A stretch of DNA of 64,000 nucleotides. Origin: Deltaproteobacteria bacterium. GTDB lineage: Bacteria; UBA10199; JADGCS01. The notes below the pieces were generated by a model. It was not told the DNA's origin, ran no database searches, and saw nothing but the letters and a program-made list of their open reading frames with translations. The translations under genes and the position numbers were made by a program. Shown piece after piece: positions 19,659 to 63,537 of this stretch. Location of the stretch: positions 3,122-67,121 of the forward strand of contig JADGCS010000005.1 in assembly GCA_015228875.1 (NCBI GenBank), given 5' to 3'. How positions within the stretch are numbered: the first letter of the stretch is position 1; every line of letters starts with the position of its first letter.

Positions 19659-21735
19659 ACTCAAGTCCGAATACACACCGTGTGGGGATCAACAAAAGGC
19701 CATCGCTGATCTGGTCAGTGGGATTGAAGCGGGCGCACGGTTTCAGACGCTTCTGGGGGTGACCGGTTCTGGCAAGACCTTTACCATGGCCCATGTGATC
19801 GCCAAGGTTAAAAAACCGACACTGATCCTTGCCCCCAACAAGACGCTTGCAGCGCAGCTTTATGCCGAGTTCCGGTCCTTTTTTCCCGAGAGCGCGGTTG
19901 AGTACTTTGTAAGCTATTACGATTATTATCAGCCCGAGGCCTATATCCCGCGCACCGATGTGTACATCGAAAAAGACTCCGCCATCAACGAGGAGATCGA
20001 CAAGCTCAGGCACGCGGCAACACACGCGCTCCTCACACGACAGGATGTGATTATTGTGGCGAGTGTTTCCTGCATTTACGGTCTTGGTTCGCCGGAGGCT
20101 TACAACGGGATGCTTATTGATGTGCAGAGGGGGATGAATTGCGACCGGAAGGAGATCATCAACAGGCTTGTGGAGATCCAGTACGAGCGCAACGATTGCG
20201 ACTTCCATCGCGGTACGTTCAGGGCGCGCGGTGATACACTCGACATCTTTCCGGTCTACGAAGAGTCTGAGGCCGTTCGCATCTCTTTCTTTGACGACGT
20301 GATCGACCAGATCAGTGTCATCGATCCCCTCAAGGGCAACGTGATCAAAAAAACCGATCGTGTGGCCGTGTATCCTGGTTCGCATTTTGTGACACCCGAG
20401 GGGACCAGACAACAAGCGGTCGAGGAGATTAAAAAAGATCTTAAAGATCGCATCCAGTATTTTCACGAGCACAACATGCCCCTCGAAAAACAACGCATCG
20501 AGCAGCGCACGCTTTACGATCTTGAGATGATCGAGGAGATCGGTTTTTGCAAGGGGATCGAAAATTACTCGCGCTATTTTGACGGCCGCAAAGAGGGCGA
20601 ACCGCCGCCAACACTCCTCAAATACATGTCCGGGAGTTTTACAGTTGACAGAGCGCGGGAGCATTCCTCGCAAAATGGAGGGATTCAACCGCGTCAAAGT
20701 CAAGTTGGTAACTTGTTTCCAAGGGATTTTCTGCTTTTTATTGACGAGTCTCATATCTCTGTCCCGCAGATTGGCGGGATGTACAAGGGGGACAGGTCTC
20801 GCAAGCAGACACTGGTTGATTACGGATTTCGGCTTAAGAGTGCGCTTGATAACAGGCCCCTCACCTTCGAAGAGTTCGAGGCATCCCTTGATTATACCAT
20901 TTTTGTCTCGGCAACACCCGGAGATTACGAATTTAAAAAATCGGCAGGTGTGGTGGTCGAACAGGTGATCCGGCCTACAGGGCTTGTAGATCCTGTGGTG
21001 GAGGTGCGACCGGTGGCGCATCAGGTCGATGACTTAATTAACGAGGTCAAAAAGACGGTTGCAGGGGGGGAGAGGGTACTTGTGACAACACTCACCAAAA
21101 GGATGGCAGAGAATCTTTCAAAATACTTTGCTGAGCTTGATATTCGCTGCCGTTACCTTCACTCGGACATCAAGACCCTTGAGAGGTTTGAAATTTTAAG
21201 GGACCTGCGCAAAGGTGTCTTTGACGTGCTGGTGGGGATCAATCTTTTGCGTGAAGGGCTTGATCTGCCCGAGGTGTCTCTGGTGGCGATTCTCGATGCC
21301 GACAAAGAGGGTTTTTTGCGCTCCGAGCGTTCGCTTGTTCAAACCTTTGGCAGGGCGGCAAGAAATATCAACGGCAGGGTGATCGCGTATTCCGACACGA
21401 TGACCGGTTCGTTAAAGCGCGCCATTGCAGAGACCGAGAGGAGGAGAAAGATCCAGATGGCCTACAACAAGGAACATGGTTTGACACCCAAGTCAATCAT
21501 CAAGGCCATCAGGGAGGGGATTCATCAGACGGTGGAGGCCGATTATGTTGATGTTGATACCGTGCTTGACCTGCCAAAGGCAATCAACGTGCGTGATATT
21601 CCAAAAATGATTGTCAAGCTGCGCAAGGAGATGCTCAAGTGTTCACAGTACATGGATTTTGAAAAGGCGGCACTCATCCGTGACGAGATCAAAAAACTCC
21701 GCGAGGTCGAGCTTTGTCTGGGGGGAGATGTGTGA
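19651..21735 (+). CDS. uvrB: Excinuclease ABC subunit B, carrying a 30-aa in-frame repeat insertion
   Basis: [37 protein letters not shown]-terminal UVR coil. Confidence 0.98.
20626..20715 (+). repeat. 90-bp palindromic element, copy A (in frame in uvrB)
   Basis: Matches copies at 25811, 25900, 59907, 61694, 62260; encodes [30 protein letters not shown]. Confidence 0.92.
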
Positions 21736-21759
21736 ATGCCACGGTTTTTTTAAAAAAAT

Positions 21760-21796
21760 TTGACTGACCAGACCAGACCAGACTATAATTGTAGTC
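21760..21796 (+). promoter_or_regulatory. Sigma70 promoter and overlapping operator of the TA operon
   Basis: TTGACT(21760)-18 nt-TATAAT(21784); near-palindrome GACTATAATTGTAGTC over the -10; (GACCA)x3 in the spacer. Confidence 0.75.
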
Positions 21797-22036
21797 ATGA
21801 AGATGATCAACATTTACAACGCCAAGTCGCAGTTTTCGGCGATCATCGAGCAGGTCGCCACGCGGGGGACCGAGTTTATCATTGGCAAGGCGGGCAGGGC
21901 TGTTGCCAAGATTGTCCCCTACAAAGCAGCGAGAAAAAAAAGGCGTCTTGACTACCTTAAAGGTAAAATTAAAACAGCACCCGATTTTGATCAGTGGCCC
22001 GATGACATCGCACTTTCTCTGGGGATCACATCATGA
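21797..22036 (+). CDS. Phd/YefM-family antitoxin
   Basis: INIYNAKSQFS..IIGKAGRAVAKIVP pattern; ATGA overlap with the PIN gene. Confidence 0.88.
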   Translation: MKMINIYNAKSQFSAIIEQVATRGTEFIIGKAGRAVAKIVPYKAARKKRRLDYLKGKIKTAPDFDQWPDDIALSLGITS

Positions 22037-22410
22037 GATACCTGCTCGACACCCATGTTCTCTTATGGGCCTGTGCCGATTCCAAAAAACTTAAAGCCCC
22101 GGTCAAACAAATTATCGAGTCCTCAGATCATATTATTTTTGTGAGTCTTGCTTCCTTGTGGGAACTGCGTATCAAAGAATCCATAGGCAAGGTGACTTTA
22201 CCCAGGGGGTTTTACAATGGACTCACCAAGGCGGGTTTTGAAATTCTTAACATGACGCTGGATCACATTCATATGGTGGGCAAACTCCCCCTCCACCATC
22301 GCGACCCCTTCGACCGCATGCTGATCGCGCAGTGCCTGTGTGAGCAGATGACACTCATATCCAACGACGAGAATATTAAAAAATACAAATTGAGTCTTGT
22401 GACGGCATGA
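22033..22410 (+). CDS. vapC: PIN-domain (VapC) toxin
   Basis: YLLDTHVLLW, SLWELRIK, HRDPFDRMLIAQ, SND. Confidence 0.92.
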   Translation: MRYLLDTHVLLWACADSKKLKAPVKQIIESSDHIIFVSLASLWELRIKESIGKVTLPRGFYNGLTKAGFEILNMTLDHIHMVGKLPLHHRDPFDRMLIAQCLCEQMTLISNDENIKKYKLSLVTA

Positions 22411-22475
22411 ATCGGCAATTTAAGGTCAGGATATTTTACCCCTTGAGAGTCGCTCGGACTATTCTTTAAAAGCAC

Positions 22476-22555
22476 ATCCATAAATTCCCCAATCCCGCTG
22501 TGATGCACAAAGTCGGCGATACCGTCCCATGGCGTGGATTCACGGTTGCGAATGG
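22476..22555 (-). pseudogene. Isolated duplicate of the cobB 3' end
   Basis: 63/80 nt identical to 26437-26516; translates IRNRESTPWDGIADFVHHSGIGEFMD versus IINRDPTPLDHMADFVHHGGIGEFMD. Confidence 0.85.
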
Positions 22556-24493: not shown

Positions 24494-26029
24494 ATGAGGC
24501 GCTATTCAATGACAGAGACTGCCAGAACAACTGATCACACATCCTTTTTACGCAGGCTGAGTCAAAGCAGCTATTTTAACCTGATTGTCTCTGTCACCCG
24601 AAAATGTGCCCTGCGCTGCATTTACTGCTATGCGACAGACAACAGCATAAACAAGGGACCGCACATCATATCAGATGATCTTCTTGAAATAATCATCAGG
24701 GATGCCTTCGCTGTCAGGCACCCCAAAATCACGTTTGAGTGGACAGGCGGAGAGGCCCTTCTTGCAGGAAAAGTTTTTTTTGAAAAGGTCATTCACTGGC
24801 AGAATATTTACAAAGATTCCAAAAAAGATTTTGAAAACATTATTCAGACCAGCGGTGCTGTCTACGACGAAGGGCTGTACGATTTTCTGATCGACAATCA
24901 TTTTACGCTCTCCATGACCATCGATGGCCCCCCAGAGGTACACAATAAAAACAGGCCCCTGCCCTGTGGTCGCGGGTCATTTGATACGGTATTCAAGTCG
25001 TTCAAGTACATTAAGAAGAGGCAGGGACACTGCGGCGTTCTTTGCACACTCACACATTCTTCTATAGGCAGAATGAAAGAGATATTCGATTTCTACGCGA
25101 GAGAGGGGATCACAAGCTGGCATACCAATCAGTATTCGTTCGATAACAGCAAACCTGTTGGCGAAAAGAGAGAAGGGATTACTCCTGATGAGTATGCCCT
25201 TTATTTTAAGAGCCAGTTTGACTACTGGCTCAAGACCGATAGCCACACGGTTTACCCGAATCAGGTTGATTATCTATTTAAAGCCTTCTGCGGAAGACTT
25301 GAGTCTACCAAATGCACGCACGGTGGAAGGTGCCTCACAAATTTTCTAAATATCGATCCTGAAGGAAATGCCTATCTATGTCCCAAGTTCATCGGCTTTT
25401 CTGATCACAGAATCGGAAATATCAAAGACCAGAGGATCATAGAGTTGATTCACCCCCACAATCCGCGCATCGCGCGGTATATTAAAGAGAGGCTTGTTGC
25501 CATCAACAGGTGCGAGGCGGAATCATGCCCCTACCTGGCAGTGTGCAGCTCCGGCTGTCCGTATGGGTCACTGCTCTCCGGTCAAGACGGGACGATCTCT
25601 GGTCGCGACATCATGTGCAGCGGCATGAGAGATCTCTATCAGCACATAGACCACAGGTTGGCTGCATATGATCTTAAAACAATCACAAAGACAGAACAGG
25701 TTCAAAAGACGCACAGACTGACCAAAAACAAAAAACGCCGAGGCCTGCAAAAGAAAAAGAAAGACGGGCCAATCGTCCGCAGGTGCGCGTCATTAAAACA
25801 TCGTAATTTAGTGTCTAGGAATTTCAAAACCGACAGAGCGCGGGTGGATTCCTCGCAAAATGAAGGAATTCAACCGCGTCAAAGTCAAGTTAGTAACTTG
25901 TATCCAGGAATTTCAAAGTTGACAGAGCGCGGGCGCAACCCTCGCATGACGTGGAAACTCAACCGCGTCAAAGTCAAGTTAGTAACTTGTATAAGTTTAA
26001 ACAATCAACCAGAAAAGGAGGCAAAATGA
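24494..26029 (+). CDS. Radical SAM/SPASM protein (anaerobic sulfatase maturase-like), putative peptide maturase
   Basis: CALRCIYC, FEWTGGEAL, SPASM Cys pattern C..C..C...C..C..C...C...C; tail extended by two repeat copies. Confidence 0.88.
   Translation: MRRYSMTETARTTDHTSFLRRLSQSSYFNLIVSVTRKCALRCIYCYATDNSINKGPHIISDDLLEIIIRDAFAVRHPKITFEWTGGEALLAGKVFFEKVIHWQNIYKDSKKDFENIIQTSGAVYDEGLYDFLIDNHFTLSMTIDGPPEVHNKNRPLPCGRGSFDTVFKSFKYIKKRQGHCGVLCTLTHSSIGRMKEIFDFYAREGITSWHTNQYSFDNSKPVGEKREGITPDEYALYFKSQFDYWLKTDSHTVYPNQVDYLFKAFCGRLESTKCTHGGRCLTNFLNIDPEGNAYLCPKFIGFSDHRIGNIKDQRIIELIHPHNPRIARYIKERLVAINRCEAESCPYLAVCSSGCPYGSLLSGQDGTISGRDIMCSGMRDLYQHIDHRLAAYDLKTITKTEQVQKTHRLTKNKKRRGLQKKKKDGPIVRRCASLKHRNLVSRNFKTDRARVDSSQNEGIQPRQSQVSNLYPGISKLTERGRNPRMTWKLNRVKVKLVTCISLNNQPEKEAK
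25811..25900 (+). repeat. 90-bp palindromic element, copy B1
   Basis: Encodes [30 protein letters not shown] in the rSAM frame. Confidence 0.92.
25900..25989 (+). repeat. 90-bp palindromic element, copy B2 (tandem, 1-nt overlap with B1)
   Basis: Same ends and CGCGG/CCGCG stem; read in the alternative open frame ([18 protein letters not shown]). Confidence 0.88.
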
Positions 26030-26358
26030 AAGTCACAAACAGTCCCAAGGTAACCAATACCGCCGCGGAAACAGGGTATGCGCCAACGCCGGTCCAAGAG
26101 GCTCCCATTCCTCAGGTGATTAAGGAGATGAAGGATTGGCAGAAGCAGCAGGACCTCAGCAGCCTGCTCGAAGGCAAGATGTATGCGGTTGCGGAAGGAC
26201 ATACGGACATTCACACGAACTCGACCAGGTGCGGGGGAGAATGTCATATCGATATCCACAAGGACAATCACACGGACAAGACATCAGATAAAGGCGCGCA
26301 CACAAACGTAGGACCCAAACCGCCAAAACCACCAAAAGAGCCGACCCCCAAGGGTTAA
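26026..26358 (+). CDS. 110-aa His-x-Asp/Asn repeat peptide, putative RiPP precursor
   Basis: AAGGAGG RBS, ATGA overlap with the rSAM stop; HTD, HTN, HID, HKD, HTD, HTN. Confidence 0.8.
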   Translation: MKVTNSPKVTNTAAETGYAPTPVQEAPIPQVIKEMKDWQKQQDLSSLLEGKMYAVAEGHTDIHTNSTRCGGECHIDIHKDNHTDKTSDKGAHTNVGPKPPKPPKEPTPKG

Positions 26359-26409: not shown

Positions 26410-27171
26410 TTATACAACCAGACCCTGTGTGAGCCTATCCATAAACTCCCCAATCCCTCCGTGATGCACAAAATCAGCCATATGATCCAATGGTGTGGGG
26501 TCGCGGTTGATGATGGCCAGAAAGGCGCCGCTTTCTTTGGCGATGGCGGGAATTGAGGCCGCAGGTTGAACCTGCAGGGAAGAACCTAGGACAATAAAGA
26601 CCTTGGCCTGTGTAGCCCACTCATGTGCCTGCTGCATCTCGTTAACCGGCATGGGTTGACCAAACGAGATGGTCGCGGGTTTAAGATAACCGCCGCAGTC
26701 CTTGCACACGGGGGGATCAAAGCCTTTTTGCGGGTCGATGGATTCGAAGACGGGTGCGGCCTCTGTGAGTCGCCAACACTTAAGGCAGACGACCTTTCTG
26801 TCGGTCCCGTGCAGCTCTACGGTTTTTTTATTTGACACACCGGCGATCTCGTGAAGGCCATCGACATTTTGCGTGATGAGCCCAAGCAGTTTGCCGCGTC
26901 TCTCAAACTCTGCAATGGTCGTGTGTCCTGTGTTTGGCTTGACACTCTTGTAGAGCTCAAAGGTTTCTTTTTTCATGGTCCAATATCTTACACGGGCTGT
27001 GTGGCTTGAGAGAAAATCGTCGTAATACACGGGCTGGTAACGGGTCCAAATCCCGCCAGGGCTTCTAAAATCAGGGACACCGGACTCGGTACTGATCCCG
27101 GCACCGGTAAAAAAAACGACGTCAACTGTGGTTTTGATTTGATGAATGATTTGTGAATGCGAAAGCGGCAT
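26410..27171 (-). CDS. cobB: NAD-dependent protein deacylase (sirtuin)
   Basis: FTGAGISTESGVPDFR, TQNVDGLH, ELHG, two CxxC, LGSSLQVQPAA. Confidence 0.95.
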   Translation of the reverse strand: MPLSHSQIIHQIKTTVDVVFFTGAGISTESGVPDFRSPGGIWTRYQPVYYDDFLSSHTARVRYWTMKKETFELYKSVKPNTGHTTIAEFERRGKLLGLITQNVDGLHEIAGVSNKKTVELHGTDRKVVCLKCWRLTEAAPVFESIDPQKGFDPPVCKDCGGYLKPATISFGQPMPVNEMQQAHEWATQAKVFIVLGSSLQVQPAASIPAIAKESGAFLAIINRDPTPLDHMADFVHHGGIGEFMDRLTQGLVV

Positions 27172-28779: not shown

Positions 28780-30567
28780 TCAGCCATGTTTGTTGTAGAG
28801 GGCAGCATTTTTGTTAAAATAGTTGCTGCTGTCAAAACCGTATATTGATTTGTAGCGTAGCCAGTGCGCAACGTCGTGGACGTCCATGAGTTGCTTGAGT
28901 GATTTAATATATTTATTAAGCTCCATGACAACAGATGGCTTGTCATGCAGACATTGGTACAATGCAAAGATTAAATAATCATTGCTCATAATCTTGTGTT
29001 TGTATGGTGTCACAAGTGAGTTTAAAAGTTCTTCTCTTTCCAGTGCCTTTGTTTCGCGAGCCTTCCACTCCAGACCTCTGGTCTCAGAAAAGGCATATCC
29101 GTAGATGTTATCTTCGCGTGAGTATTTGTGATCAATTATAATTCCGTACGCGTCAGGATCGTTGAACATGGGCGTGTTATGATGCAATTCAAGAGAACTG
29201 AAACCCCAACAGTTGACAATGTCTGAATATGTTCTGATAAAACTGCATAACTCGTTGAACTCTTCATCCGTCTCGTGTGGAAAACCAACGATGATATTTA
29301 CGCATATCCAGATGCCCGCATCGTGTGCATTAATGATGCCTCTCAGGGCCTCATCTATTGAAAGTTGTTTGTTGATAAGTTTGAGTATCCTTTCAATCGG
29401 TGATTCGAGGCCGAACCAGAGCTTAATGCATCCTGACTCTCTGAGCAGACTACAGACGTCTTTTGAAAGGTTTCTAAAACACGCCGAATCTGAATATTGT
29501 ATATTCAGTCTCCGTTTAATGATTTCACTGCAGAACTCCTCAACATATTTTTGTGAAAAGTTGATTTGTGAGTTCAGAAACAAAAAATTCTTGATCCCCT
29601 TTTCATTGACATATCTTTCAAGTATATCGACCACAACTTTTGCGGGCTTTGCAATCAAGGGATTATTGGCTTCCTTACAGAAGGCGCATTTATGACTGCA
29701 ACCGTACATGAATTTATACGGGTAGATGGCTATTTCAGCTTCCTGCCAGTGATTTTTGCAGGGAGTCTGGGGCAATATTTTTGCAAATGACGTGGTGTAG
29801 TGACTGCCGTTCACAATATCGTATGAGGGCGTGATGTTCAGAAGTTTACTTCTCAAAACAGTTTCTGTGTCTGTTGTGGTATTTGAAAGCTCTTCTCCGT
29901 CGACCAGCGTCCACTCTTTGCCATGAATAAATAATTCTCCGGTATGTTTAACATGCTCAGTTAATTTATCTGTATCGAAGTCGGTATTGACCAATATTGG
30001 AAGGGCAATGGCTCCATCACCGAAGAAAAGATAATCATAAGGGTGATCCTGTGACTGATCCAGCGCTTTTTTGATGTTGTGTGCGCCAATGATGTTGAGT
30101 ATCTGACCACCCAGTATGATTTTTTGATCGGACTTGTTTTTCAATCTTCTACACAGAAGTGTGATAAATCCAAAAGAGGATTCGAAGACATCATGGAAGA
30201 CCGTGACCCGATTGAGAGAGATCGCAATGGCAGAATAACTGAAGGAGCCTATGAATTCGACTGCCTTATTGAGTACTGTATCCAGATCTGAGGGCAGTGT
30301 CTCTTTTCTTGTTTTGATGATGTGTCTCCATTTTTGGAGGTATTGCAGTGTTGATGTTGCGAGAAGTGTTTTTTTGTCATGCAAGATATTGAACTTAAGA
30401 TTGAGATCAACATAGGTGGTTGGGATATGTGCGTGTTTTAAGCCGCCTGTGACGAGTGATGATCCGAGAGCGGGCTCGACATAGGGGAGTTCCCTAAATA
30501 GGGTAAGGTTCGGTGCCACCAGAAACAGCAGATTTTGGTCTCTTGAATTCTCCATAAAACCAAACAT
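28780..30567 (-). CDS. B12-binding-domain radical SAM protein (class B methyltransferase-like)
   Basis: N-terminal cobalamin-binding-like region; YGCSHKCAFC; SGCIKLWFGLES; NIIVGFPHET. Confidence 0.85.
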   Translation of the reverse strand: MFGFMENSRDQNLLFLVAPNLTLFRELPYVEPALGSSLVTGGLKHAHIPTTYVDLNLKFNILHDKKTLLATSTLQYLQKWRHIIKTRKETLPSDLDTVLNKAVEFIGSFSYSAIAISLNRVTVFHDVFESSFGFITLLCRRLKNKSDQKIILGGQILNIIGAHNIKKALDQSQDHPYDYLFFGDGAIALPILVNTDFDTDKLTEHVKHTGELFIHGKEWTLVDGEELSNTTTDTETVLRSKLLNITPSYDIVNGSHYTTSFAKILPQTPCKNHWQEAEIAIYPYKFMYGCSHKCAFCKEANNPLIAKPAKVVVDILERYVNEKGIKNFLFLNSQINFSQKYVEEFCSEIIKRRLNIQYSDSACFRNLSKDVCSLLRESGCIKLWFGLESPIERILKLINKQLSIDEALRGIINAHDAGIWICVNIIVGFPHETDEEFNELCSFIRTYSDIVNCWGFSSLELHHNTPMFNDPDAYGIIIDHKYSREDNIYGYAFSETRGLEWKARETKALEREELLNSLVTPYKHKIMSNDYLIFALYQCLHDKPSVVMELNKYIKSLKQLMDVHDVAHWLRYKSIYGFDSSNYFNKNAALYNKHG

Positions 30568-30645
30568 GGACTCTTGGGAAATAGTCGTACATAATAAAGC
30601 TTGTCAATCCGAATTGGGAACAATAAATTGTGCAGGAGGCTGTAC

Positions 30646-31623
30646 ATGAAAACATTCAGAGAAATCCTGGCCGATATTGACTGGGCCATGCCCGACAGTC
30701 AGTATTGTTCAAACACATTAATTTGTTTGCCGAGGTATAAGAGATTTCACGAATTGATCATGCACAACAAAAGGGAATCATCCACAACTTATGTTGATCG
30801 TAACTTTTGTCGCAGAGATAAAATTAAACGGAAACTAACTCGCGTAAAAGCGATGTTGAAAAAAATGTCGCTGCATTTCAAAATTACTCCTGATACGTGT
30901 GTTTTGGACCTTGGTTCTGGTCTTGGAATGGAATCTCTTATACTTCACTTCTTAACCGGTGTGACTGTGTGTGCTGTTGACAGAGAAACGCAAATCGAAT
31001 TTAAAAAAAGAAGTTGTCATATTAACGATTGGTATGATGATTTGGTCTTTGTACTTAAGGAGGCTGGTATCTGTGATTGTTGTCTTGATAAGGATTCCCT
31101 GAACAGCCGCGTACGCAGTATTGCCGCAGATGCCTCTCAATTGCCAGTTATGGATAATAGTTTCGATCTCGTATTCAGTATTTATTCCCTGGAGCACTTT
31201 ACAAAACTGGAACAGACCGTTGGGGAAATTCGTCGGGTATTACGGCCGGGGGGGGTGTTTTACTTTAAAACATCAAATTACAATTCTCTGGTTGGCCCGC
31301 ATACTCCGGGAATCATCGATATTCCATGGGCACATTTGGTGATTTCAAAGAAAGAGATATGCAAGATCAAGAAGGAGATTGATCCGACGATTACAGATGA
31401 TGATCTCGAAATGTTCATGGAGATCAACGAAAACACACTTGATCAATGGAAAGCTGTTTTTCCGAAAGACCTTTGGCACTTTGTCAAATGGGATATGATC
31501 AGGGATCCTGATCTTTCAGAAAAAGACATACCTGATTGGGTACTGAAGCACAAACCTGATGAGGTCTCGATTGATGATATCCTGGTAGAAGACATTGAAG
31601 CTATTCTCATTAATAACAAGTAA
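30646..31623 (+). CDS. Class I SAM-dependent methyltransferase
   Basis: VLDLGSGLG, FDLVFSIYSLEHF, RVLRPGG; AGGAGG RBS before ATG 30646. Confidence 0.9.
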   Translation: MKTFREILADIDWAMPDSQYCSNTLICLPRYKRFHELIMHNKRESSTTYVDRNFCRRDKIKRKLTRVKAMLKKMSLHFKITPDTCVLDLGSGLGMESLILHFLTGVTVCAVDRETQIEFKKRSCHINDWYDDLVFVLKEAGICDCCLDKDSLNSRVRSIAADASQLPVMDNSFDLVFSIYSLEHFTKLEQTVGEIRRVLRPGGVFYFKTSNYNSLVGPHTPGIIDIPWAHLVISKKEICKIKKEIDPTITDDDLEMFMEINENTLDQWKAVFPKDLWHFVKWDMIRDPDLSEKDIPDWVLKHKPDEVSIDDILVEDIEAILINNK

Positions 31624-31647
31624 AAACCAAGTGAGAGGGCCCAAAGT

Positions 31648-32631
31648 ATGGGAATAATCTGTTCATTTAATCGTGGTTGTAATGGTTGTTTAGCCTTTGT
31701 TTCCAAGAAAAGTTCAATGGCGAAAGTTTTTAATAGGCCTCGTGCACTTATGGTTGAACCAACGAATTACTGTAATTTGAGCTGTCCGTTGTGTCCCACG
31801 GGAAGCGGGGAACTTGGTGTTCCACGGGGTTACATGGATACCCAGAAATACAAGGCCCTCGTTGATGAACTGGCACCGTATCTTGAAGAAATGAACTTGT
31901 GGGGTTTTGGTGAGCCCATGCTTCACAAGGACATTTATGAAATGATAAGTTATGCATCTGCAAAAGGCATAGATACCCGGATCAGCACCAATGGCCATTT
32001 CTTCAAGACAAAGAGGGACGCGGAGCATGTGGTAGAATCCGGACTTTACAAGATGAGAATATCCCTTGACGGTGTATCGCAGGAAACTCTTGTCAAATAC
32101 CGCAGAAACGCTTCGTTCGAATCCATTCTGGACGGAATCAGAAGGATAAATAAAATCAAAAAACTAAAAAAGACAAAAAAACCCATTCTGGTCTTTCAGT
32201 TCATTGTGATGAAGCACAACGAACATGAAATCGACAAGGCATCCAAAATGGCCACAGAATTGAAAATGCGACTTGTCTTGAAGCCGGTAAGTGTTGGCAG
32301 AACATTGGAAGAAGCCACTGCCTATCTTCCAGACAACAAGAATTACAGCAAGTATGATTACGGCAATGATAAAATTGTAAAAGGTGCAGGGGTACCCCAG
32401 CCCAGAATATGTCCCTTTCCATGGGATTGGGCACATGTTAACTGGGACGGAAGTGTTGTCCCTTGTTGTAAGGACCCACAACGACAACACCCGTTGGGAA
32501 ATGCATTTGAACAAGGTGGATTTTTAAAAATCTGGAACTCGAAAGAGTATGTGAGGTTTAGAAAAATTTATCTTACAGACAGAAGTCTTCATGCATTATG
32601 TAAAAAATGTGTTTTGCCAGCTAAGGTTTAA
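31648..32631 (+). CDS. Radical SAM protein with SPASM/twitch domain
   Basis: EPTNYCNLSCPLC, WGFGEPMLH, CPFPW..VNWDGSVVPCC, CKKC. Confidence 0.9.
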   Translation: MGIICSFNRGCNGCLAFVSKKSSMAKVFNRPRALMVEPTNYCNLSCPLCPTGSGELGVPRGYMDTQKYKALVDELAPYLEEMNLWGFGEPMLHKDIYEMISYASAKGIDTRISTNGHFFKTKRDAEHVVESGLYKMRISLDGVSQETLVKYRRNASFESILDGIRRINKIKKLKKTKKPILVFQFIVMKHNEHEIDKASKMATELKMRLVLKPVSVGRTLEEATAYLPDNKNYSKYDYGNDKIVKGAGVPQPRICPFPWDWAHVNWDGSVVPCCKDPQRQHPLGNAFEQGGFLKIWNSKEYVRFRKIYLTDRSLHALCKKCVLPAKV

Positions 32632-33628
32632 TGCTGCCTAGAAAGAGATCGCATTTTTTGCACCTCTTGTTTTTTGCCGGGTCTTTGAGATAATTTTTGC
32701 GAAAGGCCATGAATGCTTCGTTATTCCAGATATCATGGATGTTCTGTTCAAATACATTTCCGATAAGGTGGCGTCGGTGAGGATCTTTACAACAGGGCAC
32801 GATAGTCCCGTCCCAGTTAACATGCAGCCAAAACCATGGATAGGGGCAGACTCTTGGTTTTTTCTCACTGGTTTCACAGAGGCTCATGGGTTTGTAGCGG
32901 CTTTTCTCGGGGTCCGGAAAAATTTTTTGCTCTTTGTTTTCTGCGTTCTTGTTACCGATGGATACCGTTTTGATTCTCCACCCAATGTTCATTTTTTCAG
33001 CAAGTTTTGTAAGTTTTGGGATTTCGTGTTTGTTGTGTTCCATTGCAATAAACTGAAGTATAATCTGGGGGGTTAAGCGGTGAGTCGCTTTTTTTCTATC
33101 GATAATATTCGACAACCCCTCCATAATTAACTCAAAGGAGGCCCCTTTTCTATAGACCTGTAAGACTTTATCCGAAAGTCCGTCCAGTGACACTCTCAAC
33201 TGTGTCAGACCTGAATCGACGAGTGCGTTGCATTTGTCTTTACCCCCAAAGCACTGGCCGTTGGTGCTGATTTTTGTCTTGATGTCCACAGAACTTGCAA
33301 ATGAGACCATCTTGAATATTTCAGGGTGCAGGAGGGGTTCGCCAAACCCCCATATGAGTAGTGTGTCCAATGAGGATGCCATTGTGGATATGAGTCTCTC
33401 GAATTTGCCGTATTCCATATAGCCTCGAGGGACATCAATCTCACCATTGCCTGTTGGGCAGAGCGGACACGCAAGGTTGCAATAATTGGTGGGCTCAATC
33501 ATCATGTACATGGGCATATGTGAAAGACGCACGAGCCCCATTGTGGCATTGAGTTTACTGAGCAGCGTATTCCATTTTCTTTTTGTTCTTATTCTCATCA
33601 TGCGACTTGTATAACCCACGACGGACAA
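32621..33628 (-). CDS. Radical SAM protein with SPASM/twitch domain (paralog of 31648-32631)
   Basis: EPTNYCNLACPLC, WGFGEPLLH, CPYPW..VNWDGTIVPCC, CKKC. Confidence 0.9.
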   Translation of the reverse strand: MSVVGYTSRMMRIRTKRKWNTLLSKLNATMGLVRLSHMPMYMMIEPTNYCNLACPLCPTGNGEIDVPRGYMEYGKFERLISTMASSLDTLLIWGFGEPLLHPEIFKMVSFASSVDIKTKISTNGQCFGGKDKCNALVDSGLTQLRVSLDGLSDKVLQVYRKGASFELIMEGLSNIIDRKKATHRLTPQIILQFIAMEHNKHEIPKLTKLAEKMNIGWRIKTVSIGNKNAENKEQKIFPDPEKSRYKPMSLCETSEKKPRVCPYPWFWLHVNWDGTIVPCCKDPHRRHLIGNVFEQNIHDIWNNEAFMAFRKNYLKDPAKNKRCKKCDLFLGSIKP

Positions 33629-33642
33629 AAGTAAACTTGTGA

Positions 33643-34761
33643 TTACGCCCCTGAGTCTTTAGCTGCTCTTTGGGCCTTTAAATTAAGTTCGTTCCAAAAT
33701 GCCTCAAGATGCTTTTTGTCGACGTATTTCATCACCTCGACATTCTCATCGAGGGCAATCCAGCACTTGGAACATTCGGGATGCTTGATTGGAGGTATAA
33801 GTCCACATTTGAAGTCTATGGATTTTTTTGAGTCAATAATGGATGACAAACTTGAATCAAACACATTTCCAAAAAGATATTGATCATATTTTAGCATACA
33901 ACAGGGAAAGACATTGCCGTCATGATTGATGTCAATTCTAAAGAAAGGCAAAAAGCAGGGGGTTTTTACTTGTAACTCATTGTTTTCCAAAAAATAGGAT
34001 TGCTCGCACATATCTATACTCTGGGCGATTCGCTCTATGTTTGACTCGATATTTGATGCAGAGAGCGCTGACATGCATTCCGGGATGACAGTTTTATTCA
34101 TATCGAAGATGTTCTCAGGGCTGAGTGCGAACTCTTGGTCGTTTTCAACGAAGCCGGTTCGTTCATAGGGCATGAATCTGATCGTATCGATTCCTTCAAC
34201 CTGCGCGAAGGCTATATAATCGGGCATGTGTTTGTAGTTCATGGATGTGACCACAAAATTCAGACCCACAGCCCGTACCTGGCGCGGAGTGAGGTTTTTC
34301 AACAGGCGGATGGCTCTTACGGTTTTGTGCCATGCACTTTTGATGCCTACGATATAATCGTGTGTCGCTGGATCATGTGAATCTAGGGAAAGGGCAGCTT
34401 GTCTCAAGCGAACTTTTGTGAATTTCTTAATATAATTCTTATCAATGTTGAAACCATTGGTGGTGATGGAGCATTTGATGTCTTTGTCGTGGGCATATGC
34501 GAGTACTTCGGGCAGATTTTTATACAGAGTGACCTCTCCGCCAATGAGATTGAGTTTCTTGAATCCGACGGAGCTGATGTCGTCGATTATTTTGATGAGT
34601 TTGTCTGGCGGCATTTCTTCTCCCGAGCCCCTCCTCCAACAAGGGCATTTGCGACAACGTGAATTGCAGCGCCGCGTAATCATTATTTTTGCAGATGCCG
34701 CCTTGTAGGGGCTGCCAGCCATAATATATTCTATAAAATCGGTATTGATAACAGGTTTCAT
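33643..34761 (-). CDS. Radical SAM protein with SPASM/twitch domain
   Basis: TRRCNSRCRKC, LIGGEVT, CFLPF..GNVFPCC, CSKC. Confidence 0.88.
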   Translation of the reverse strand: MKPVINTDFIEYIMAGSPYKAASAKIMITRRCNSRCRKCPCWRRGSGEEMPPDKLIKIIDDISSVGFKKLNLIGGEVTLYKNLPEVLAYAHDKDIKCSITTNGFNIDKNYIKKFTKVRLRQAALSLDSHDPATHDYIVGIKSAWHKTVRAIRLLKNLTPRQVRAVGLNFVVTSMNYKHMPDYIAFAQVEGIDTIRFMPYERTGFVENDQEFALSPENIFDMNKTVIPECMSALSASNIESNIERIAQSIDMCEQSYFLENNELQVKTPCFLPFFRIDINHDGNVFPCCMLKYDQYLFGNVFDSSLSSIIDSKKSIDFKCGLIPPIKHPECSKCWIALDENVEVMKYVDKKHLEAFWNELNLKAQRAAKDSGA

Positions 34762-34767
34762 TTGTTT

Positions 34768-36895: not shown

Positions 36896-36970
36896 GTGTG
36901 CAGATCCGGCTTGACCCCACACAATTAGGTCTCTATAGGTGCGTGTGTCAAATCAAAACGCGGGGTACCA

Positions 36971-37630: not shown

Positions 37631-37634
37631 TCAG

Positions 37635-42784: not shown

Positions 42785-42802
42785 GCATAAGGAAGCGTCT
42801 CC

Positions 42803-59017: not shown

Positions 59018-59866
59018 ATGAACACAGAAAAAATTAAGGAAGATATCATCGATCTTTATTACGGAGAATCCAATCTGTCTCTCAAAGAGATCGCTGTAAG
59101 ACACGGGGTTTCTTTAGAGGACTGCCAGCAAGAACTTAAGGCGGTTCTTTTGGTGTCGCAGGTTTGCCGCAGTCTGCCGCAGCATGTGCCTTCGCAGATC
59201 AGCATCAACAAGATCACAGCCCATGCGAGAGAAAAGGTCATGGCGTTGCAAAGAAAATCCTTTTGGCCCATGTTCAGGCCGGCCTATGCAGTTGCCTTGG
59301 TCTTTGTGATGGGGATTGCCATTTCTCAAATCTGGATGACGACCCACTCTCCTGATAACGGCGGCGTTGATATCGCTTTTAAGCATCAAACAGACAGCGA
59401 CAGTGCCACGCAGGTCAAAGAGCGTCTGTTTATGACACCGCTGGATAACAGCAGTTTTTCACAACCATACAGTTTAAACAAGAGCGGCGCGAAATATTTT
59501 TTTCCAAACATCTCTGCAGCGAGTGTTGGCAATGAGCAGGGGGATTATGCCCTCGCTGAGGCGCTTGATCAAAAAATGATATCAAACAACCTTACGCTGC
59601 AGGACATAGAAACCCTGTATTTCAGGGCCCGCAAATTTGAGCAGCAGGGTTATTTTCAAGAGGCCCTGCACGATTACGTCTTTCTTGCCAGAAATTACCC
59701 CTCCTTCAAGTACCAAAAGGCCCTTCCTCTGGCCATCGCGAGGTGTTACGAGGAGTTGGGCAACAAACAAACGGCGTTGAGTATTCTTTTGGACTACGAA
59801 AGACTCTACGGAAGCACCGAAGATATCAAATTCTGGAAAGACCAGTTAAAATCCGAGACGTTTTAG
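59018..59866 (+). CDS. Putative anti-sigma factor with one TM and a C-terminal TPR
   Basis: Follows the ECF gene; single TM; LYFRARKFEQQGYFQEAL TPR-like repeat. Confidence 0.7.
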   Translation: MNTEKIKEDIIDLYYGESNLSLKEIAVRHGVSLEDCQQELKAVLLVSQVCRSLPQHVPSQISINKITAHAREKVMALQRKSFWPMFRPAYAVALVFVMGIAISQIWMTTHSPDNGGVDIAFKHQTDSDSATQVKERLFMTPLDNSSFSQPYSLNKSGAKYFFPNISAASVGNEQGDYALAEALDQKMISNNLTLQDIETLYFRARKFEQQGYFQEALHDYVFLARNYPSFKYQKALPLAIARCYEELGNKQTALSILLDYERLYGSTEDIKFWKDQLKSETF

Positions 59867-59906
59867 GCTCCGCAATGGCCATGTCTGCGATGCGTGAGAG
59901 GATCTT

Positions 59907-59996
59907 CAAGTTACTAACTTGACTTTGACGCGGTTGAATTCCTCCATTTTGCGAGGAATGCACCCGCGCTCTGTCAACTTTGAAATTCCCAAACAT
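59907..59996 (-). repeat. 90-bp palindromic element, copy C (intergenic)
   Basis: Reverse complement matches the consensus nearly perfectly. Confidence 0.92.
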
Positions 59997-60122
59997 TTAA
60001 GTATCAACCACAGAGTCTCATAAGAGCGCTGCTGGCGGTCGGTAACCAGATTTATTTCTGACAGAGGCCATTCATGCAGGCACAGGGACAGCACGGCTGG
60101 GCCATTTTGGAAAGGGATCGTG

Positions 60123-60419
60123 CTAATCGTTGGCGTCTTTTGTTGTTTGTTCTGCCGCGTTATTTTCGAGGTCGTCCTCAAAATCAAAATTATCGATGTT
60201 GTCTTCTGTGATCTCGGGCATTGATGAGATTTCTTCGTCGCTGAGTTCGTCGCCAACGCCGATTTCGTCGTCGGTGATCATGACAAGCTCAAAGTTGTTT
60301 TCTTCGTTTGGAAGGTCTTTAAGGTATGCGTTGATGTCGGACTCTGAAATAATGCCTTTTTTAAGGTAGTTTTCCCTGATTCGTTTGTCGAGGTATCTGG
60401 TGTCAATGTTTTTGGCCAT
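60123..60419 (-). CDS. Small protein with acidic C-terminal tail
   Basis: 98 aa; basic helical N-terminus DKRIRENYLKKG..YLKDLP, then D/E-rich tail. Confidence 0.75.
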   Translation of the reverse strand: MAKNIDTRYLDKRIRENYLKKGIISESDINAYLKDLPNEENNFELVMITDDEIGVGDELSDEEISSMPEITEDNIDNFDFEDDLENNAAEQTTKDAND

Positions 60420-60421
60420 AA

Positions 60422-60509
60422 CAAGTTACAAACTTAACCTTGGTGCGGCTGGATTTATGTGAAGAATACACCCGCGCTTGGTCAACTTTGAAAGTCAAAT
60501 TCTTGGAAC
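60422..60509 (-). repeat. 90-bp palindromic element, degenerate copy D
   Basis: CAAGTTACAAACTT...GCGG...CACCCGCGCT..GTCAACTTTGAAA; shortened inner hairpin; ends 2 nt before the ATG at 60419. Confidence 0.75.
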
Positions 60510-60624
60510 CCGAGAAGGTTTTTTCTGTGCCCAAGGGCCTCTCCCTTAAAGGCCGCCCGCTGCTTTGTGCGAGACACGCCACCGGCCCCCTACCGGCAGG
60601 GTACTTACTGGCAGAGAGACACTG

Positions 60625-61593
60625 CTATACGTGAGAGGCCTTTTCGATCTCCATGATGATCTTGCCCTCTCTGAAAATACGGACATCCCCGGTGGACTCG
60701 GAGATAACAATAGCAATGGCTTTTGTCAACGCGGTGATCCCGGACGCCGCCAGATGGCGCGAACCAAGCCCCCTTGGGATGTCTGAATCTTCCATAGAGG
60801 CGCCCAGATACCGGCCTGCTGTGATGATTTCGCCATTACCGGCAATAATGAACGCGCCATCAACCGATGAGAGTTCCCGCAAAGTCTCTTTGAGTGCGGG
60901 GTTGAGGATGTTACGTTCTTCGGGCTCGTACCCTTTAAAGGGATTGATGATCATTTGCTTGGACAATTGCATGGCTTTTTCTTCGTCGCCAAGCACAAAG
61001 ATGGTTCCGATGGGTTTGCCCTCTTTGCCTTTGTTGCCAAACTCGATGGCGAGATTAAGTGTGTGTTCGAAGACGGCTGGAATAATGGATTTGGGCATGT
61101 CTGCCAGACTGTGCCCGGTTAAAAGCTCCTGTTCGGTGCTGATTTGAAAATACATGAGGGTATCCAGTGAATTGGATTCTGATTTACCGACCAGCGAGAC
61201 GATTTTATCGTCGGGATGCACCATTTTTGCGGACAAAGCAAAGACAACAGCAATTTTAATCAGGGCCATACGGCCGAGTTTGAGCCTGGGGATGACAACA
61301 ATGTCTTTAAATGGGTGTTTGCCGTTGTAGGTGTATTCGGGACTTTTGGTGATGAGGATAATCTGCACCCCCTCTGGCAGTTTGTCCGGGATGACGTTTT
61401 CGTCTATGGCATCAACGTAAATAAACAAAGCCTTTGCCTTGTTTTTTTTTGCGATGTCAAAGGCCGTCTTGATAATGGCCCTGTTTTGCGCGGTGATTTC
61501 TTGTTTTCGCCTGATGGCAGGATCCACTGTTTTGGCCTTGGATGCAGTGGCCTTCAGCGGTGTCTTTTGGAGATCTTCCTGTTTTTTTAACAT
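60625..61593 (-). CDS. Diadenylate cyclase (DisA_N/DAC domain) with N-terminal extension, DacZ-like
   Basis: GKPIGTIFV, ELSSVDGAF, GLGSRH, ISESTG. Confidence 0.85.
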   Translation of the reverse strand: MLKKQEDLQKTPLKATASKAKTVDPAIRRKQEITAQNRAIIKTAFDIAKKNKAKALFIYVDAIDENVIPDKLPEGVQIILITKSPEYTYNGKHPFKDIVVIPRLKLGRMALIKIAVVFALSAKMVHPDDKIVSLVGKSESNSLDTLMYFQISTEQELLTGHSLADMPKSIIPAVFEHTLNLAIEFGNKGKEGKPIGTIFVLGDEEKAMQLSKQMIINPFKGYEPEERNILNPALKETLRELSSVDGAFIIAGNGEIITAGRYLGASMEDSDIPRGLGSRHLAASGITALTKAIAIVISESTGDVRIFREGKIIMEIEKASHV

Positions 61594-61693
61594 GACGTGT
61601 TCCTCTACCGGTCAATGCTTTGTCTTGTCATTTGTATTACAAGTCTAAATTAAAAAGACCGGCCTCTTAAAGTTTTTGACGAAAACACAAAAA

Positions 61694-61783
61694 CAAGTTA
61701 CTAACTTGACTTCGACGCGGTTGGATTCCTCCATTTTGCGAGGAATGAACCCGCGCTCTGTCGACTTTGAAATTCCTAGACTT
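61694..61783 (-). repeat. 90-bp palindromic element, copy E (intergenic, upstream of dsbD)
   Basis: Reverse complement matches the consensus. Confidence 0.92.
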
Positions 61784-61818
61784 AATATTATATTGTTATA
61801 CCCAAACCTTTTTCGATC

Positions 61819-63537
61819 ATGAAAATCAAAAACACTTTTTTCATCTATTTGATTTTATTTTTCACGTCAACAGCTCATGGGTACTTAAGTAAAACAGATG
61901 AGTCACTTCCTTTTACTCTTTTTTTTGATGATGAAACACCTCTGCTGGTGACGGATTTTAGGGGAGAGATAGAATTTCTATTCAATATTCCCGAAAAACA
62001 TCATCTGTATCGCGAAAAGATAGAGATCAAGTTTGACTCGGACAAAATCAGTCACACACTTGTAAAACCCGCTGGTATTTTAAAATACGACGAATTTATG
62101 GGGATGGAAACAGAGGTTTATGAGCATCAACTTGCTGTGCTCGCAAAAGTACAGTTTGCGCGTGACTTTGATTTTAAACAGGCCCTGACTGGGGCCATTT
62201 ATTATCAGGGCTGTTCAAACAAAATCTGTTTCAGATCGGTGGAGACGCGGTTTAAATTTGTGTCTAGGAATTTCAAAACCGACAGAGCGCGGGAGGATTC
62301 CTCGCAAAACAAAGGAATTCAACCGCGTCCCCCAAGGGGATTTCCTTCGGGGCATCAAAGTCAAGTTAGTAACTTGCTTTTAAACCCGGATCACAAAGCA
62401 TTGGCGGGACAGATGATCACGGCAGACCAACATGTCAGCAATACCAGGCCCGGCGTCTGGGAGATTCTTAAAAAAAACGATCTTGGGCTTGTGTTGAAAC
62501 AGGGTCTTTTTCTGGCCATTCTGTTCACGTTTATCGCGGGCGTGTTGACCGGATTTACCCCCTGTGTTCTGCCCATCATACCGCTGACGCTCGCATTTAT
62601 TGGTGTGACCCCTCAGGCAAAGGGCGCCCGCAAGTTTAACAGCCTGCTGGTTTTTGTGCTGGGGATGGTCCTCACAAATTCTTTCCTGGGTATTCTGTCG
62701 GCCCTCATCGGCAAGACCCATGGTTTCTATTATCAGAGGGATTTGTTCCTCGTCCTTCTTATTCTGTTCCTTGTTCTTATGGGGCTCTGGCTTGTCGGTG
62801 TTGTCAACTTGAGCCTGTCTTCAAAAATTCAGACAGGTATTTCGAGGTTTCAACCAAAGAGCGGGGTGGTCCGTAATCTTTTTGCTGGTCTTACCATTGG
62901 CGTCCTTGCAGCACCCTGCGTGGGCCCTGTTTTAGGGCCATTGCTTGTTTATATTTCCACAAGACAGGATTTGTTTCTGGGTACTGTTCTCATGTTGAGT
63001 TATTCGCTGGGCTTAAGTGTGGTCTTTTTTATACTTGGTTTTTTCTCACGGGGCTGGGTGGCGAGGTTTGGCGAAAAATCAAATATTATCAAAAAACTTC
63101 TTTCGATCCTTTTATTTGTCACCGCTTTTTATTACCTTTACGTTCTTGTCAATCCCTGGGTTGGCAGCAAAACCTCTGATGATTCTTTTTTTAAGAACGA
63201 TTTAAAAGTGGCAGTGAGCCTGGCAAAAAAAGAAAACAAAAAAGTCCTCGTGGATTTTTATGCTGACTGGTGTCTCCCCTGCAAAGAATGGGACCAGCTT
63301 GTCTGGTCTAAAGAAAATGTGAGGGGTCTGGTCGTAGAGAGTTTTGTTCCGGTCAAGATCAACTGCACAAAAGAAACAGGGCCATGCGCCGATGCTGTCA
63401 AAACCTATCAGGTGATTGGCTGGCCTACAATATTATTTATTGATGAAAAAGGTGATGAAATAAAGGACCGGCGTATTGTTGGTGATGTGATGGAGGCAGA
63501 GGAATTCATGGATTATATCAGGATGCTGAACCAGTGA
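61819..63537 (+). CDS. dsbD: Thiol:disulfide interchange protein DsbD, carrying a 39-aa in-frame repeat insertion
   Basis: N-domain QGC...C, FTPCVLP, APCVGP, thioredoxin WCLPC. Confidence 0.92.
   Translation: MKIKNTFFIYLILFFTSTAHGYLSKTDESLPFTLFFDDETPLLVTDFRGEIEFLFNIPEKHHLYREKIEIKFDSDKISHTLVKPAGILKYDEFMGMETEVYEHQLAVLAKVQFARDFDFKQALTGAIYYQGCSNKICFRSVETRFKFVSRNFKTDRAREDSSQNKGIQPRPPRGFPSGHQSQVSNLLLNPDHKALAGQMITADQHVSNTRPGVWEILKKNDLGLVLKQGLFLAILFTFIAGVLTGFTPCVLPIIPLTLAFIGVTPQAKGARKFNSLLVFVLGMVLTNSFLGILSALIGKTHGFYYQRDLFLVLLILFLVLMGLWLVGVVNLSLSSKIQTGISRFQPKSGVVRNLFAGLTIGVLAAPCVGPVLGPLLVYISTRQDLFLGTVLMLSYSLGLSVVFFILGFFSRGWVARFGEKSNIIKKLLSILLFVTAFYYLYVLVNPWVGSKTSDDSFFKNDLKVAVSLAKKENKKVLVDFYADWCLPCKEWDQLVWSKENVRGLVVESFVPVKINCTKETGPCADAVKTYQVIGWPTILFIDEKGDEIKDRRIVGDVMEAEEFMDYIRMLNQ
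62260..62376 (+). repeat. Palindromic element copy F (117 bp, with nested 27-bp hairpin), in frame in dsbD
   Basis: Encodes VSRNFKTDRAREDSSQNKGIQPRPPRGFPSGHQSQVSNL. Confidence 0.92.

Follow-up and report, generated by a model that had tools for sequence, protein, structure and literature searches.

We analysed a 64-kb stretch of an uncultured deltaproteobacterial metagenome-assembled genome (MAG; contig JADGCS010000005.1 of assembly GCA_015228875.1), referred to below as the window, which carries seven copies (c1 to c7) of a 90-nt palindromic repeat. The copies form a repeat family inserted in unrelated genes and in intergenic sites: uvrB and a dsbD-like gene each contain one copy, a radical-SAM gene contains two, and c4, c5 and c6 are intergenic (Table 1). 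Copies were searched for with a consensus, with a repeat finder and with a nucleotide profile (nhmmer) built from the copies; the three procedures agree on these seven (63 to 96 bits, E 1e-18 to 7e-29) and gave no further copy in the 64 kb. An earlier sequence-only reading had placed seven copies at the same coordinates and four of them in open reading frames (ORFs). All seven were recovered, and c1, c2, c3 and c7 lie, with the frame kept, inside NCBI-annotated coding sequences (UvrB, the radical-SAM protein twice, and DsbD). The copies are clustered, four of the seven falling within 2.5 kb and none between 26 and 59.9 kb.

Copies and anatomy of the repeat

The copy nearest the consensus, c4 (3 mismatches in 90 positions), sits between the 3' ends of two convergent genes. 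The sole ORF running over it is unannotated and is not in the protein collection, though its neighbours are. The degenerate c5 has ~70% identity and carries indels, namely a 7-nt loop deletion and a 5' indel. An NCBI-annotated, strongly acidic 98-aa ORF has its ATG 2 nt past the end of c5, with no Shine-Dalgarno sequence between the two, and the insertion may have altered the annotated start or the translation signal of this ORF. The third intergenic copy, c6, occupies the divergent promoter region between a DAC-domain gene and dsbD. Among the genic copies, c3 starts on the last base of c2, giving a 1-nt overlap and 89-nt spacing, and c7 reaches 117 nt through an additional 27-nt hairpin (CCCCAAGGGGATTTCCTTCGGGGCATC). 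This hairpin occurs only once in the window and forms its own separate fold; its peptide segment recurs in two further proteins, P0121 and P0131.

Folded with DNA parameters, a copy close to the consensus shows four segments. It begins with a 5' tail of ~18 nt that has no structure, RTGTCYAGGAATTTCAAAG, followed by a long central hairpin with imperfect pairing, TTGAC-AGAG-CGCGG..ATTCCTC-GCAAAATG-GAGGAAT..CCGCG-TCAA. A three-base spacer leads to a terminal mini-hairpin, CAAGTT-AGT-AACTTG, which closes the element. The nested stems and the terminal palindrome CAAGTTA-G-TAACTTG seen in the sequence-only reading are present. The DNA fold of c4 beats shuffled sequences (z -5.9; antisense strand z -4.6), as do the RNA folds of six copies (z -2.4 to -4.2), c5 being the one that does not (z -0.8). 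By these values the element is a palindromic repeat with a long stem-loop fold, as are the Rickettsia palindromic elements (RPEs) discussed below. Its termini, RTGTCYAGGAATTTC at the 5' end and GTCAAGTTAGTAACTTG at the 3' end, are not inverted repeats of each other. Comparing the 5' end RTGTCYAGGAATTTCAAAG with the reverse complement of the 3' end CAAGTTACTAACTTGAC revealed no shared complementarity and thus no terminal inverted repeats (TIRs), and end-to-end pairing appears in the fold of c1 only, where it is weak.

The unit length is a multiple of three, at 90 nt or, in one subfamily, 117 nt. Two sense frames (f0 and f1) and one antisense frame (r0) are free of stops in the six good copies, in line with the two forward and at least one reverse open frames claimed before; f2, r1 and r2 are not. 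Three subfamilies can be told apart. Subfamily A has the loop GCAAAATG, and B has the loop GCATGACG and the peptide ..SHDGGTQPR.., the stem being kept while the loop differs between the two. Subfamily C is A plus the 27-nt extra hairpin, encoding PPRGF(P/S)SGH. Copies diverge by 3-30% and are up to 97% identical to the consensus, and at the peptide level DRAR and QPR.SQVSNL are invariant across 12 hosts.

As a side observation, the antisense of the element's 5' end supplies TTGAAA, a -35-like hexamer, at two places in the window. At c6 it stands in the arrangement TTGAAA-16-TATATT, ~25 nt upstream of the dsbD start, and may form a hybrid outward promoter; this is a consensus match only, and the count of such matches is not above that in shuffled sequences.

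Host genes and further carriers

The UvrB encoded in the window has 694 residues, compared with 659-672 aa in its relatives. Copy c1 accounts for an exact 30-aa insert directly after ..PPTLLKY, which is missing from 119 of 119 homologues in an alignment of the 120 best database matches, and the alignment with solved UvrB structures covers only residues 2-325 and 355-685, skipping the insert. At the DNA level, four orthologues have the empty site ..TAY/TTYCCC.. where the window has ..TAC, then the 90 nt, then TTTCCA.., and no base is duplicated. In an AlphaFold model built from 49 sequences, the UvrB fold is retained and residues 329-357 are predicted as coil of low confidence (pLDDT, the model's per-residue score, ~27-29) between well-modelled flanks; the modelled loop lies between the helix 322-327 and the strand 361-365 carrying the DEXH box. 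The best UvrB relatives come from deltaproteobacterial or unclassified MAGs; the closest are ~73% identical in UvrB and have empty sites, and the nhmmer profile found no copy of the element in ~57 kb around the UvrB loci of five relatives.

The DsbD-like protein is likewise long (572 aa; relatives 512-565 aa). Copy c7 provides an exact 39-aa insert, VSRNFK...QSQVSNL, after ..RFKF that is missing from all 30 nearest homologues. It falls in the linker between the DsbD_N (49-145) and DsbD_TM (232-439) domains. Without it the protein reads ..RFKF/LLNPD.., colinear with ..PFxFE/LKPD.. of the homologues; exactly 39 residues are added, with flanks colinear with those of the 30 homologues, and there is no target duplication. 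Comparison with the empty sites of orthologues is thus clean for both UvrB and DsbD: insertion adds exactly the unit, and no target-site duplication (TSD) accompanies it.

In the radical-SAM gene, c2 is read in f0 and c3 in f1, and the NCBI-annotated read-through product (P0125) contains the insert. Judged from the reading frames, the pair is most likely a net in-frame double insertion of 180 nt (to 25990). We prefer 180 nt because this leaves the final 13 codons native, together with the TGA/ATG overlap between the gene and its downstream neighbour, whereas removing 179 nt would fuse the ORF to that neighbour, which has its own AAGGAGG ribosome-binding site. The next gene is a 110-aa ORF without a Pfam match whose ATG overlaps the radical-SAM TGA; preceded by this strong ribosome-binding site, it could encode a partner or substrate peptide of the upstream enzyme.

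To find further carriers, we scored a profile of six f0 peptides against all 1,835,955,588 representative proteins by exhaustive HMMER search. The search covered frame f0 and one representative per 50%-identity cluster; of the three window hosts, a single one served as such a representative. Ten matches were obtained (E 1e-11 to 2e-16), namely nine further proteins besides the radical-SAM protein of the window, and every one holds an in-frame copy of 30 or 39 residues. The nine belong to a single NCBI MAG named 'Deltaproteobacteria bacterium' (MBF0104744-MBF0107143, locus tags HQM16_*), presumably the genome of the window, whose own proteins, P0125 among them, are NCBI entries placed on a contig of 70,479 bp. 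They are functionally unrelated to one another: a CoxM-type FAD-binding subunit (P0123) whose CO_deh_flav_C domain is split by the insert, an inositol-monophosphatase-family protein with the insert within the domain, a PLD-family protein, a trypsin/PDZ protease, a YfhO membrane protein, a HEAT-repeat protein, a spermidine-synthase-like polytopic membrane protein, and two hypothetical proteins, one with the insert inside its signal peptide. Solved structures of CoxM-type homologues (aldehyde oxidase/CO dehydrogenase medium subunits) align only up to and after the insert of P0123. Together with the three window hosts, the total comes to 12 proteins that carry at least 13 copies in frame; by estimate and not by count, f0 carriers are in truth probably a few-fold more numerous. 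An eleventh match, P0132 (E 8e-5), was rejected as a copy, being an unrelated Cys-rich repeat protein in which 11 profile positions are matched five times. A word-index search with a concatenated f0+f1+r0 profile returned P0121 only. As the remaining 11 f0 carriers escaped it, the lack of f1 and r0 matches in that search says little.

In summary, copies within genes are read in frame and add to the host protein a hydrophilic loop that is rich in Ser/Arg/Gln and 30 or 39 residues long; structure modelling indicates that this loop is probably disordered and predicts that the host folds stay intact. In-frame insertion in conserved genes, compatible with the host fold, as described for RPEs, is seen in UvrB, DsbD, the radical-SAM gene and the nine further carriers.

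Searches for described relatives gave nothing. Rfam had no match at gathering thresholds nor at E 10; neither the element nor a matching insertion-sequence (IS) end was found in 72,556 plasmids and 50,697 phages; a 30-mer of the element had no match in genome contigs or metagenome contigs, and the back-translated f0 peptide had none in metagenome contigs; and a literature text search for element strings was negative. A 19-mer match in Mycoplasmopsis felis was rejected as a chance terminator-like palindrome involving only the last 20 nt. The claim that the element matches no described family accordingly held up in Rfam, the 1.84 billion proteins, plasmids, phages and literature strings. So did the claim that its peptide is unlike those of RPEs, since the f0 profile matched one MAG only in a protein set that should include RPE-bearing Rickettsia proteins. 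The family is real, undescribed and apparently specific to one genome.

Table 1 Copies of the repeat, their host genes and other features of the 64-kb window.
Feature	Positions	Strand	Details
uvrB	19651-21735	+	694 aa; Pfam UvrB_inter, UvrB, Helicase_C, ResIII, UVR; PDB UvrB E 5e-249
c1, 90 nt	20626-20715	+	frame f0 in uvrB; nhmmer 90.5 bits
PIN-domain gene	22033-22410		
85-nt direct repeat, copy 1	22471-22555		in unannotated DNA
Radical-SAM protein gene	24494-26029	+	Pfam Radical_SAM; NCBI product 506 aa (P0125), later start
TTGAAA at c2 5' end	25800-25827	-	-35-like hexamer
c2, 90 nt	25811-25900	+	frame f0, near 3' end of radical-SAM gene; nhmmer 93.2 bits
c3	25900-25989	+	subfamily B-like, loop GCATGACG, frame f1; nhmmer 85.9 bits
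110-aa ORF	26026-26358		no Pfam match
SIR2-family gene	26410-27171		
85-nt direct repeat, copy 2	26432-26516		in SIR2-family gene
Low-GC island	28780-45386		GC ~0.42
Radical-SAM/SPASM gene	31648-32631	+	convergent paralogue
113-nt inverted arm 1	32401-32513		
Radical-SAM/SPASM gene	32621-33628	-	convergent paralogue
113-nt inverted arm 2	32745-32857		
Tandem ~36-nt repeats	49636-49737		three copies
SurA-like chaperone gene	49649-50659		
Tandem ~710-bp units	53560-54980		two copies
Gene left of c4	59018-59866	+	convergent
ORF over c4	59906-60256		unannotated
c4, 90 nt	59907-59996	-	intergenic; nhmmer 96 bits
Acidic 98-aa ORF	60123-60419	-	convergent with 59018-59866
c5	60422-60511	-	intergenic, degenerate; nhmmer 63.3 bits
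DAC-domain gene	60625-61593	-	
c6, 90 nt	61694-61783	-	intergenic, divergent promoter region; nhmmer 92.6 bits
TTGAAA-16-TATATT at c6	61767-61794	+	promoter-like match
dsbD-like gene	61819-63537	+	thiol:disulfide interchange protein, 572 aa; Pfam DsbD_N, DsbD_TM, Thioredoxin_7
c7, 117 nt	62260-62376	+	frame f0 in dsbD; nhmmer 81 bits
27-nt extra hairpin of c7	62330-62356	+	CCCCAAGGGGATTTCCTTCGGGGCATC; peptide PPRGFPSGH; marks 117-nt subfamily

Target preference, mobility and competing explanations

Of the 11 hosts with sufficient flanking sequence, 9 have Leu or Phe immediately before the insert (p 3e-6 relative to the composition of the host proteins themselves) and 7 have Asn or Lys one residue earlier (p 1e-5); P0121, which reads ..KF at the junction, adds one more to each class. 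These flank residues are native to the hosts: UvrB, DsbD and CoxM-type homologues have identical or similar ones at the aligned positions. The corresponding DNA in the window (AAATAC, AATTTA, AACTTG at the end of c2, ACTTAA, ATATTA and AAATTT) shows a preference and not a fixed word, and right flanks have no motif apart from T-richness. We infer that the element inserts directly 3' of a site that is AT-rich and AAWTTW-like. The AACTTG at its own 3' end resembles such a target, so that the element carries a copy of the preferred site, which explains the head-to-tail pair c2-c3.

Four copies lie on the plus and three on the minus strand of a window in which the GC skew is positive almost throughout, so that orientation is not linked to replication in this small sample. 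All seven are co-oriented with the local transcript, and the three minus-strand copies bracket a two-gene minus-strand operon. With ~6 independent events (p ~0.02-0.03) this co-orientation is only suggestive, and for the genic copies a sense bias is partly expected from the frame filter, two sense frames being open versus one antisense.

We favour the explanation, to which we assign a probability of roughly 0.78, that the element is a small, non-autonomous, hairpin-forming mobile DNA repeat of the type of RPEs or repetitive extragenic palindromic (REP) sequences, which has multiplied in one genome and encodes no enzyme. Spread at the DNA level is indicated because near-identical copies are found both in intergenic DNA (c4, c6) and inside unrelated genes. 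The element would be moved in trans by an enzyme encoded elsewhere in the genome; insertion would add the exact element 3' of an AAWTTW-like site without target duplication, and the AACTTG end would both close the terminal hairpin and mimic the target site. Insertions that break genes would be purged by selection, and copies would survive where the host tolerates a loop, such as in surface loops and linkers, next to transmembrane segments and at termini. The frame-compatible length and the stop-free frames would then be a lucky property of the master sequence combined with a selective filter, and the peptide would have no function of its own.

As to the mover, our best guess, though a tentative one and less likely than not, is an HUH-type enzyme (IS200/IS605/RAYT- or IS91-like) that acts on single strands, recognises hairpins and makes its cut 3' of such sites in donor and target alike. 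The guess is based on the lack of inverted repeats and of duplication, the dominance of hairpins, the one-sided target motif and the target-like 3' end, the first two being features of the IS200/IS605 type. Unlikely, in our view, is a yet-undescribed mechanism in which a hairpin element devoid of TIRs and TSDs, with a 3' end that mimics AAWTTW, inserts in connection with transcription and not replication, for example into the displaced strand of transcription bubbles or by way of an RNA intermediate. If true, a transcription-tied mechanism would be a tractable clue to the spread of 'orphan' palindromic repeats of the RPE and CGTC types.

Several observations weigh against these views. For a mobile repeat in general, the mobility is inferred from orthologues that are only 50-73% identical. 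Seven sequences are too few for covariation to be informative, and it gives the hairpins no support: there is one compensatory pair (TTGAC/GTCAA to TCGAC/GTCGA, in c6), and 252 of 500 shuffles do equally well. Three or more open frames occur in 13% of dinucleotide-preserving shuffles of the consensus and are thus not unusual by themselves. As the sequence-only reading had stated for the window, a mobiliser is lacking: the ~57 window ORFs scanned with Pfam include no transposase or recombinase match and no Y1_Tnp/RAYT or other transposase domain. Some 17 of these ORFs have no Pfam match at all, and a few ORFs, including a truncated one at the window end, fall outside the scan. Against an HUH enzyme in particular stand the 5' end, which has no hairpin (hairpins are 3'-terminal and central only, and the 5' 18 nt are unstructured), the degenerate left-flank motif in place of a fixed tetranucleotide, and an orientation that follows transcription (7 of 7 copies) and not replication.

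The co-orientation is also an argument for an RNA-level element, whose sense transcript would be active, be it as a structured motif with a role in regulation, processing or stability or as an intermediate in RNA-mediated spread of the reverse-transcriptase or reverse-splicing type. We consider this quite unlikely. It would accommodate the transcription-aligned copies, including the three intergenic ones bracketing the minus-strand DAC operon, the RNA folds that beat their shuffles, and the -35-like TTGAAA in the antisense of the left end. It fits poorly with the failure to match Rfam even at E 10, the missing covariation, the absence of poly-A or any other retro-insertion signature and of a reverse transcriptase in the window, and the small number of independent events, the genic part of whose sense bias the frame filter leads one to expect.

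That the element is a classical miniature inverted-repeat transposable element (MITE), a deletion derivative of an IS with a DDE transposase that moves by cut and paste via its TIRs and leaves a TSD, is decidedly improbable. Small size, structure, multiple copies, the lack of an enzyme and an AT-rich target preference would all suit a MITE, and the Correia 107-bp form, ERIC and YPAL also carry open frames and fuse to genes, as PMC2229807 reports. The ends RTGTCYAGGAATTTC and GTCAAGTTAGTAACTTG, however, are not inverted repeats, the UvrB and DsbD empty sites show no duplication, and no parent IS is present in the window and no matching IS end in the plasmid and phage collections. The sequence-only reading had spoken of an undescribed peptide-donating, MITE-like family in this lineage. 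What stands of this is a family that is undescribed, in frame and peptide-donating, and that is small, non-autonomous and structured; the MITE likeness is only loose, for want of TIRs and of TSDs at the two clean empty sites, and the lineage shrinks to a single genome.

It is highly improbable that the peptide is a functional 30-residue module, for instance a tag for interaction or targeting, which protein-level selection has recruited repeatedly. Its sequence is well conserved among 12 hosts, but intergenic copies are equally conserved (c4, with 3 mismatches), c3 is read in a different frame (f1), the hosts are unrelated, both cytoplasmic and membrane proteins, with inserts inside catalytic domains, and the segment is predicted to be disordered and occurs in one genome only. 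An assembly or sequencing artefact (adapter, spike-in or chimeric joins), which a MAG source and a family seen in no other genome might suggest, is almost certainly the wrong explanation, since an adapter would be identical everywhere and ignore the frame, whereas the copies differ by 3-30% in three subfamilies, keep long ORFs intact by exact multiples of three and follow a non-random target motif.

Three more specific assignments were rejected. The ends (GTTAGTA, AGTAAC) misfit the boxes RYYYAAC ... GTTRRRY of an integron attC site, copies lie inside UvrB and DsbD, and the window has no integrase. IS91 elements target CTTG/GTTC, which the empty sites of UvrB and DsbD do not contain. Nor do these sites show a 6-bp duplication of AANTTN, and in both of the latter cases the AACTTG in question belongs to the conserved terminal hairpin.

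Other features of the window stand apart from the repeat. Two tandem copies of a ~710-bp unit (87-98% identical) lie in a ~1.9-kb gap between phosphoglucomutase-like and MFS transporter genes; the unit has no convincing ORF and no Rfam match, its plus strand folds at -272 kcal/mol against -222 kcal/mol for shuffles (z -6.3; minus strand z -4.3), and the unit could represent a large structured RNA not described before, present here twice. The start codon of the SurA-like chaperone gene is spanned by three ~36-nt repeats in tandem, with 75-86% identity to the reference copy. The low-GC island (~0.42 against 0.47-0.50) contains five radical-SAM genes, three with SPASM domains, five glycosyltransferases, a methyltransferase, an ABC exporter and an asparagine-synthase-like gene, and looks like an acquired glycan or peptide-modification cluster. 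Within its span, two 113-nt inverted arms (76% complementary) are the 3' parts of convergent paralogous radical-SAM/SPASM genes. Of an 85-nt direct repeat (78% identical), the second copy is in a SIR2-family gene, and the first, just past the PIN-domain gene, may be the remnant of a second SIR2-like gene.

Comparison with known palindromic repeats

To our knowledge, protein-coding palindromic repeats have been described chiefly in Rickettsia, and their mode of movement has never been worked out. The coding palindromic repeats of Methanocaldococcus jannaschii and the Wolbachia palindromic elements (WPEs) show the same phenomenon in other lineages, and we liken them to the present element by behaviour only.

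Four groups of known repeats were compared with the element. MITEs with open frames (the Correia 107-bp form, ERIC/IRU and YPAL; Delihas 2007/2008), ~100-170 bp long according to PMC2229807, are small repeats that form stable stem-loops, have uninterrupted open frames and occur as in-frame fusions with host ORFs, much as here; as described there, they have TIRs and TA or other TSDs, and the element has neither. Among GTAG- and CGTC-tagged REPs located in ORFs (Di Nocera et al. 2013), some are in frame in known proteins, and the CGTC-type repeats, which include RPE-4 and RPE-6, have no associated transposase in the account of PMC3733652, which also mentions WPEs. Tagged REP units are there given a length of 20-40 bp; their stems measure 8-9 bp and their loops 4-5 nt, and a CCA tail follows the tag directly. 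The present element shares with them the palindromic structure and in-frame occurrence, and it carries TGTC (positions 2-5) and CGTC (3' foot of the central hairpin), which is a lead only. It is set apart from these published descriptions by its 90-nt length, a central stem-loop of another size, and tag-like tetranucleotides that are not accompanied by such a hairpin.

With REPIN/RAYT systems and IS200/IS605 elements, the repeat has in common that it lacks TIRs and TSDs, is dominated by hairpins, is non-autonomous and inserts according to a short sequence on one flank. Unlike REPINs, it is not tagged by GTAG, and the scanned window ORFs include neither a RAYT nor a Y1 gene; unlike IS200/IS605 elements, it has a hairpin at one end only and a degenerate AAWTTW flank instead of a fixed tetra- or pentanucleotide. 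It also departs from both in that its orientation is not linked to replication and over half of the window copies are genic.

RPEs (RPE-1 to RPE-10; Ogata et al. 2000, 2002) are described in PMC2229807 and PMC10969869 as 105-146-bp stem-loop repeats lying in frame in many conserved genes, at least one RPE-bearing host enzyme having been shown to be still active; Table 1 of PMC2229807 lists RPEs with ~12-bp TIRs. By these descriptions, the likeness is extensive. Both are short palindromic repeats with a long stem-loop, both occur between genes and in frame in housekeeping genes, where the extra peptide spares the host fold, no dedicated transposase is known for either, and each family is limited to a narrow lineage. 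The differences are that the element is shorter (90/117 nt versus 105-146 nt), that it has a 3'-terminal mini-hairpin in place of the ~12-bp TIRs listed for RPEs, that its host is an uncultured deltaproteobacterial MAG and not Rickettsia, and that it has no Rfam match and an f0 peptide profile without a match outside one MAG, the comparison of the two being one of peptides.

No general principle is changed by these findings. They do offer a useful comparative case for mobilisation and for how far essential enzymes put up with random loop insertion, with fairly young copies, two exact empty sites, a measurable target preference and a target-mimicking end; one copy lies beside the DEXH box of UvrB. 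For annotation, inserts of this kind mean inflated protein lengths and lineage-specific 'orphan' segments in MAG proteomes. The element does not belong to the RPE families, falls short of a classical MITE and, with no GTAG tag and no nearby RAYT, is not to be classed as a REP/REPIN. It does behave as RPEs do, in frame inside conserved genes as well as intergenic and with a stem-loop fold, which agrees with the likeness drawn in the sequence-only reading and means that RPE-like behaviour has arisen independently in an unrelated, uncultured deltaproteobacterial lineage.

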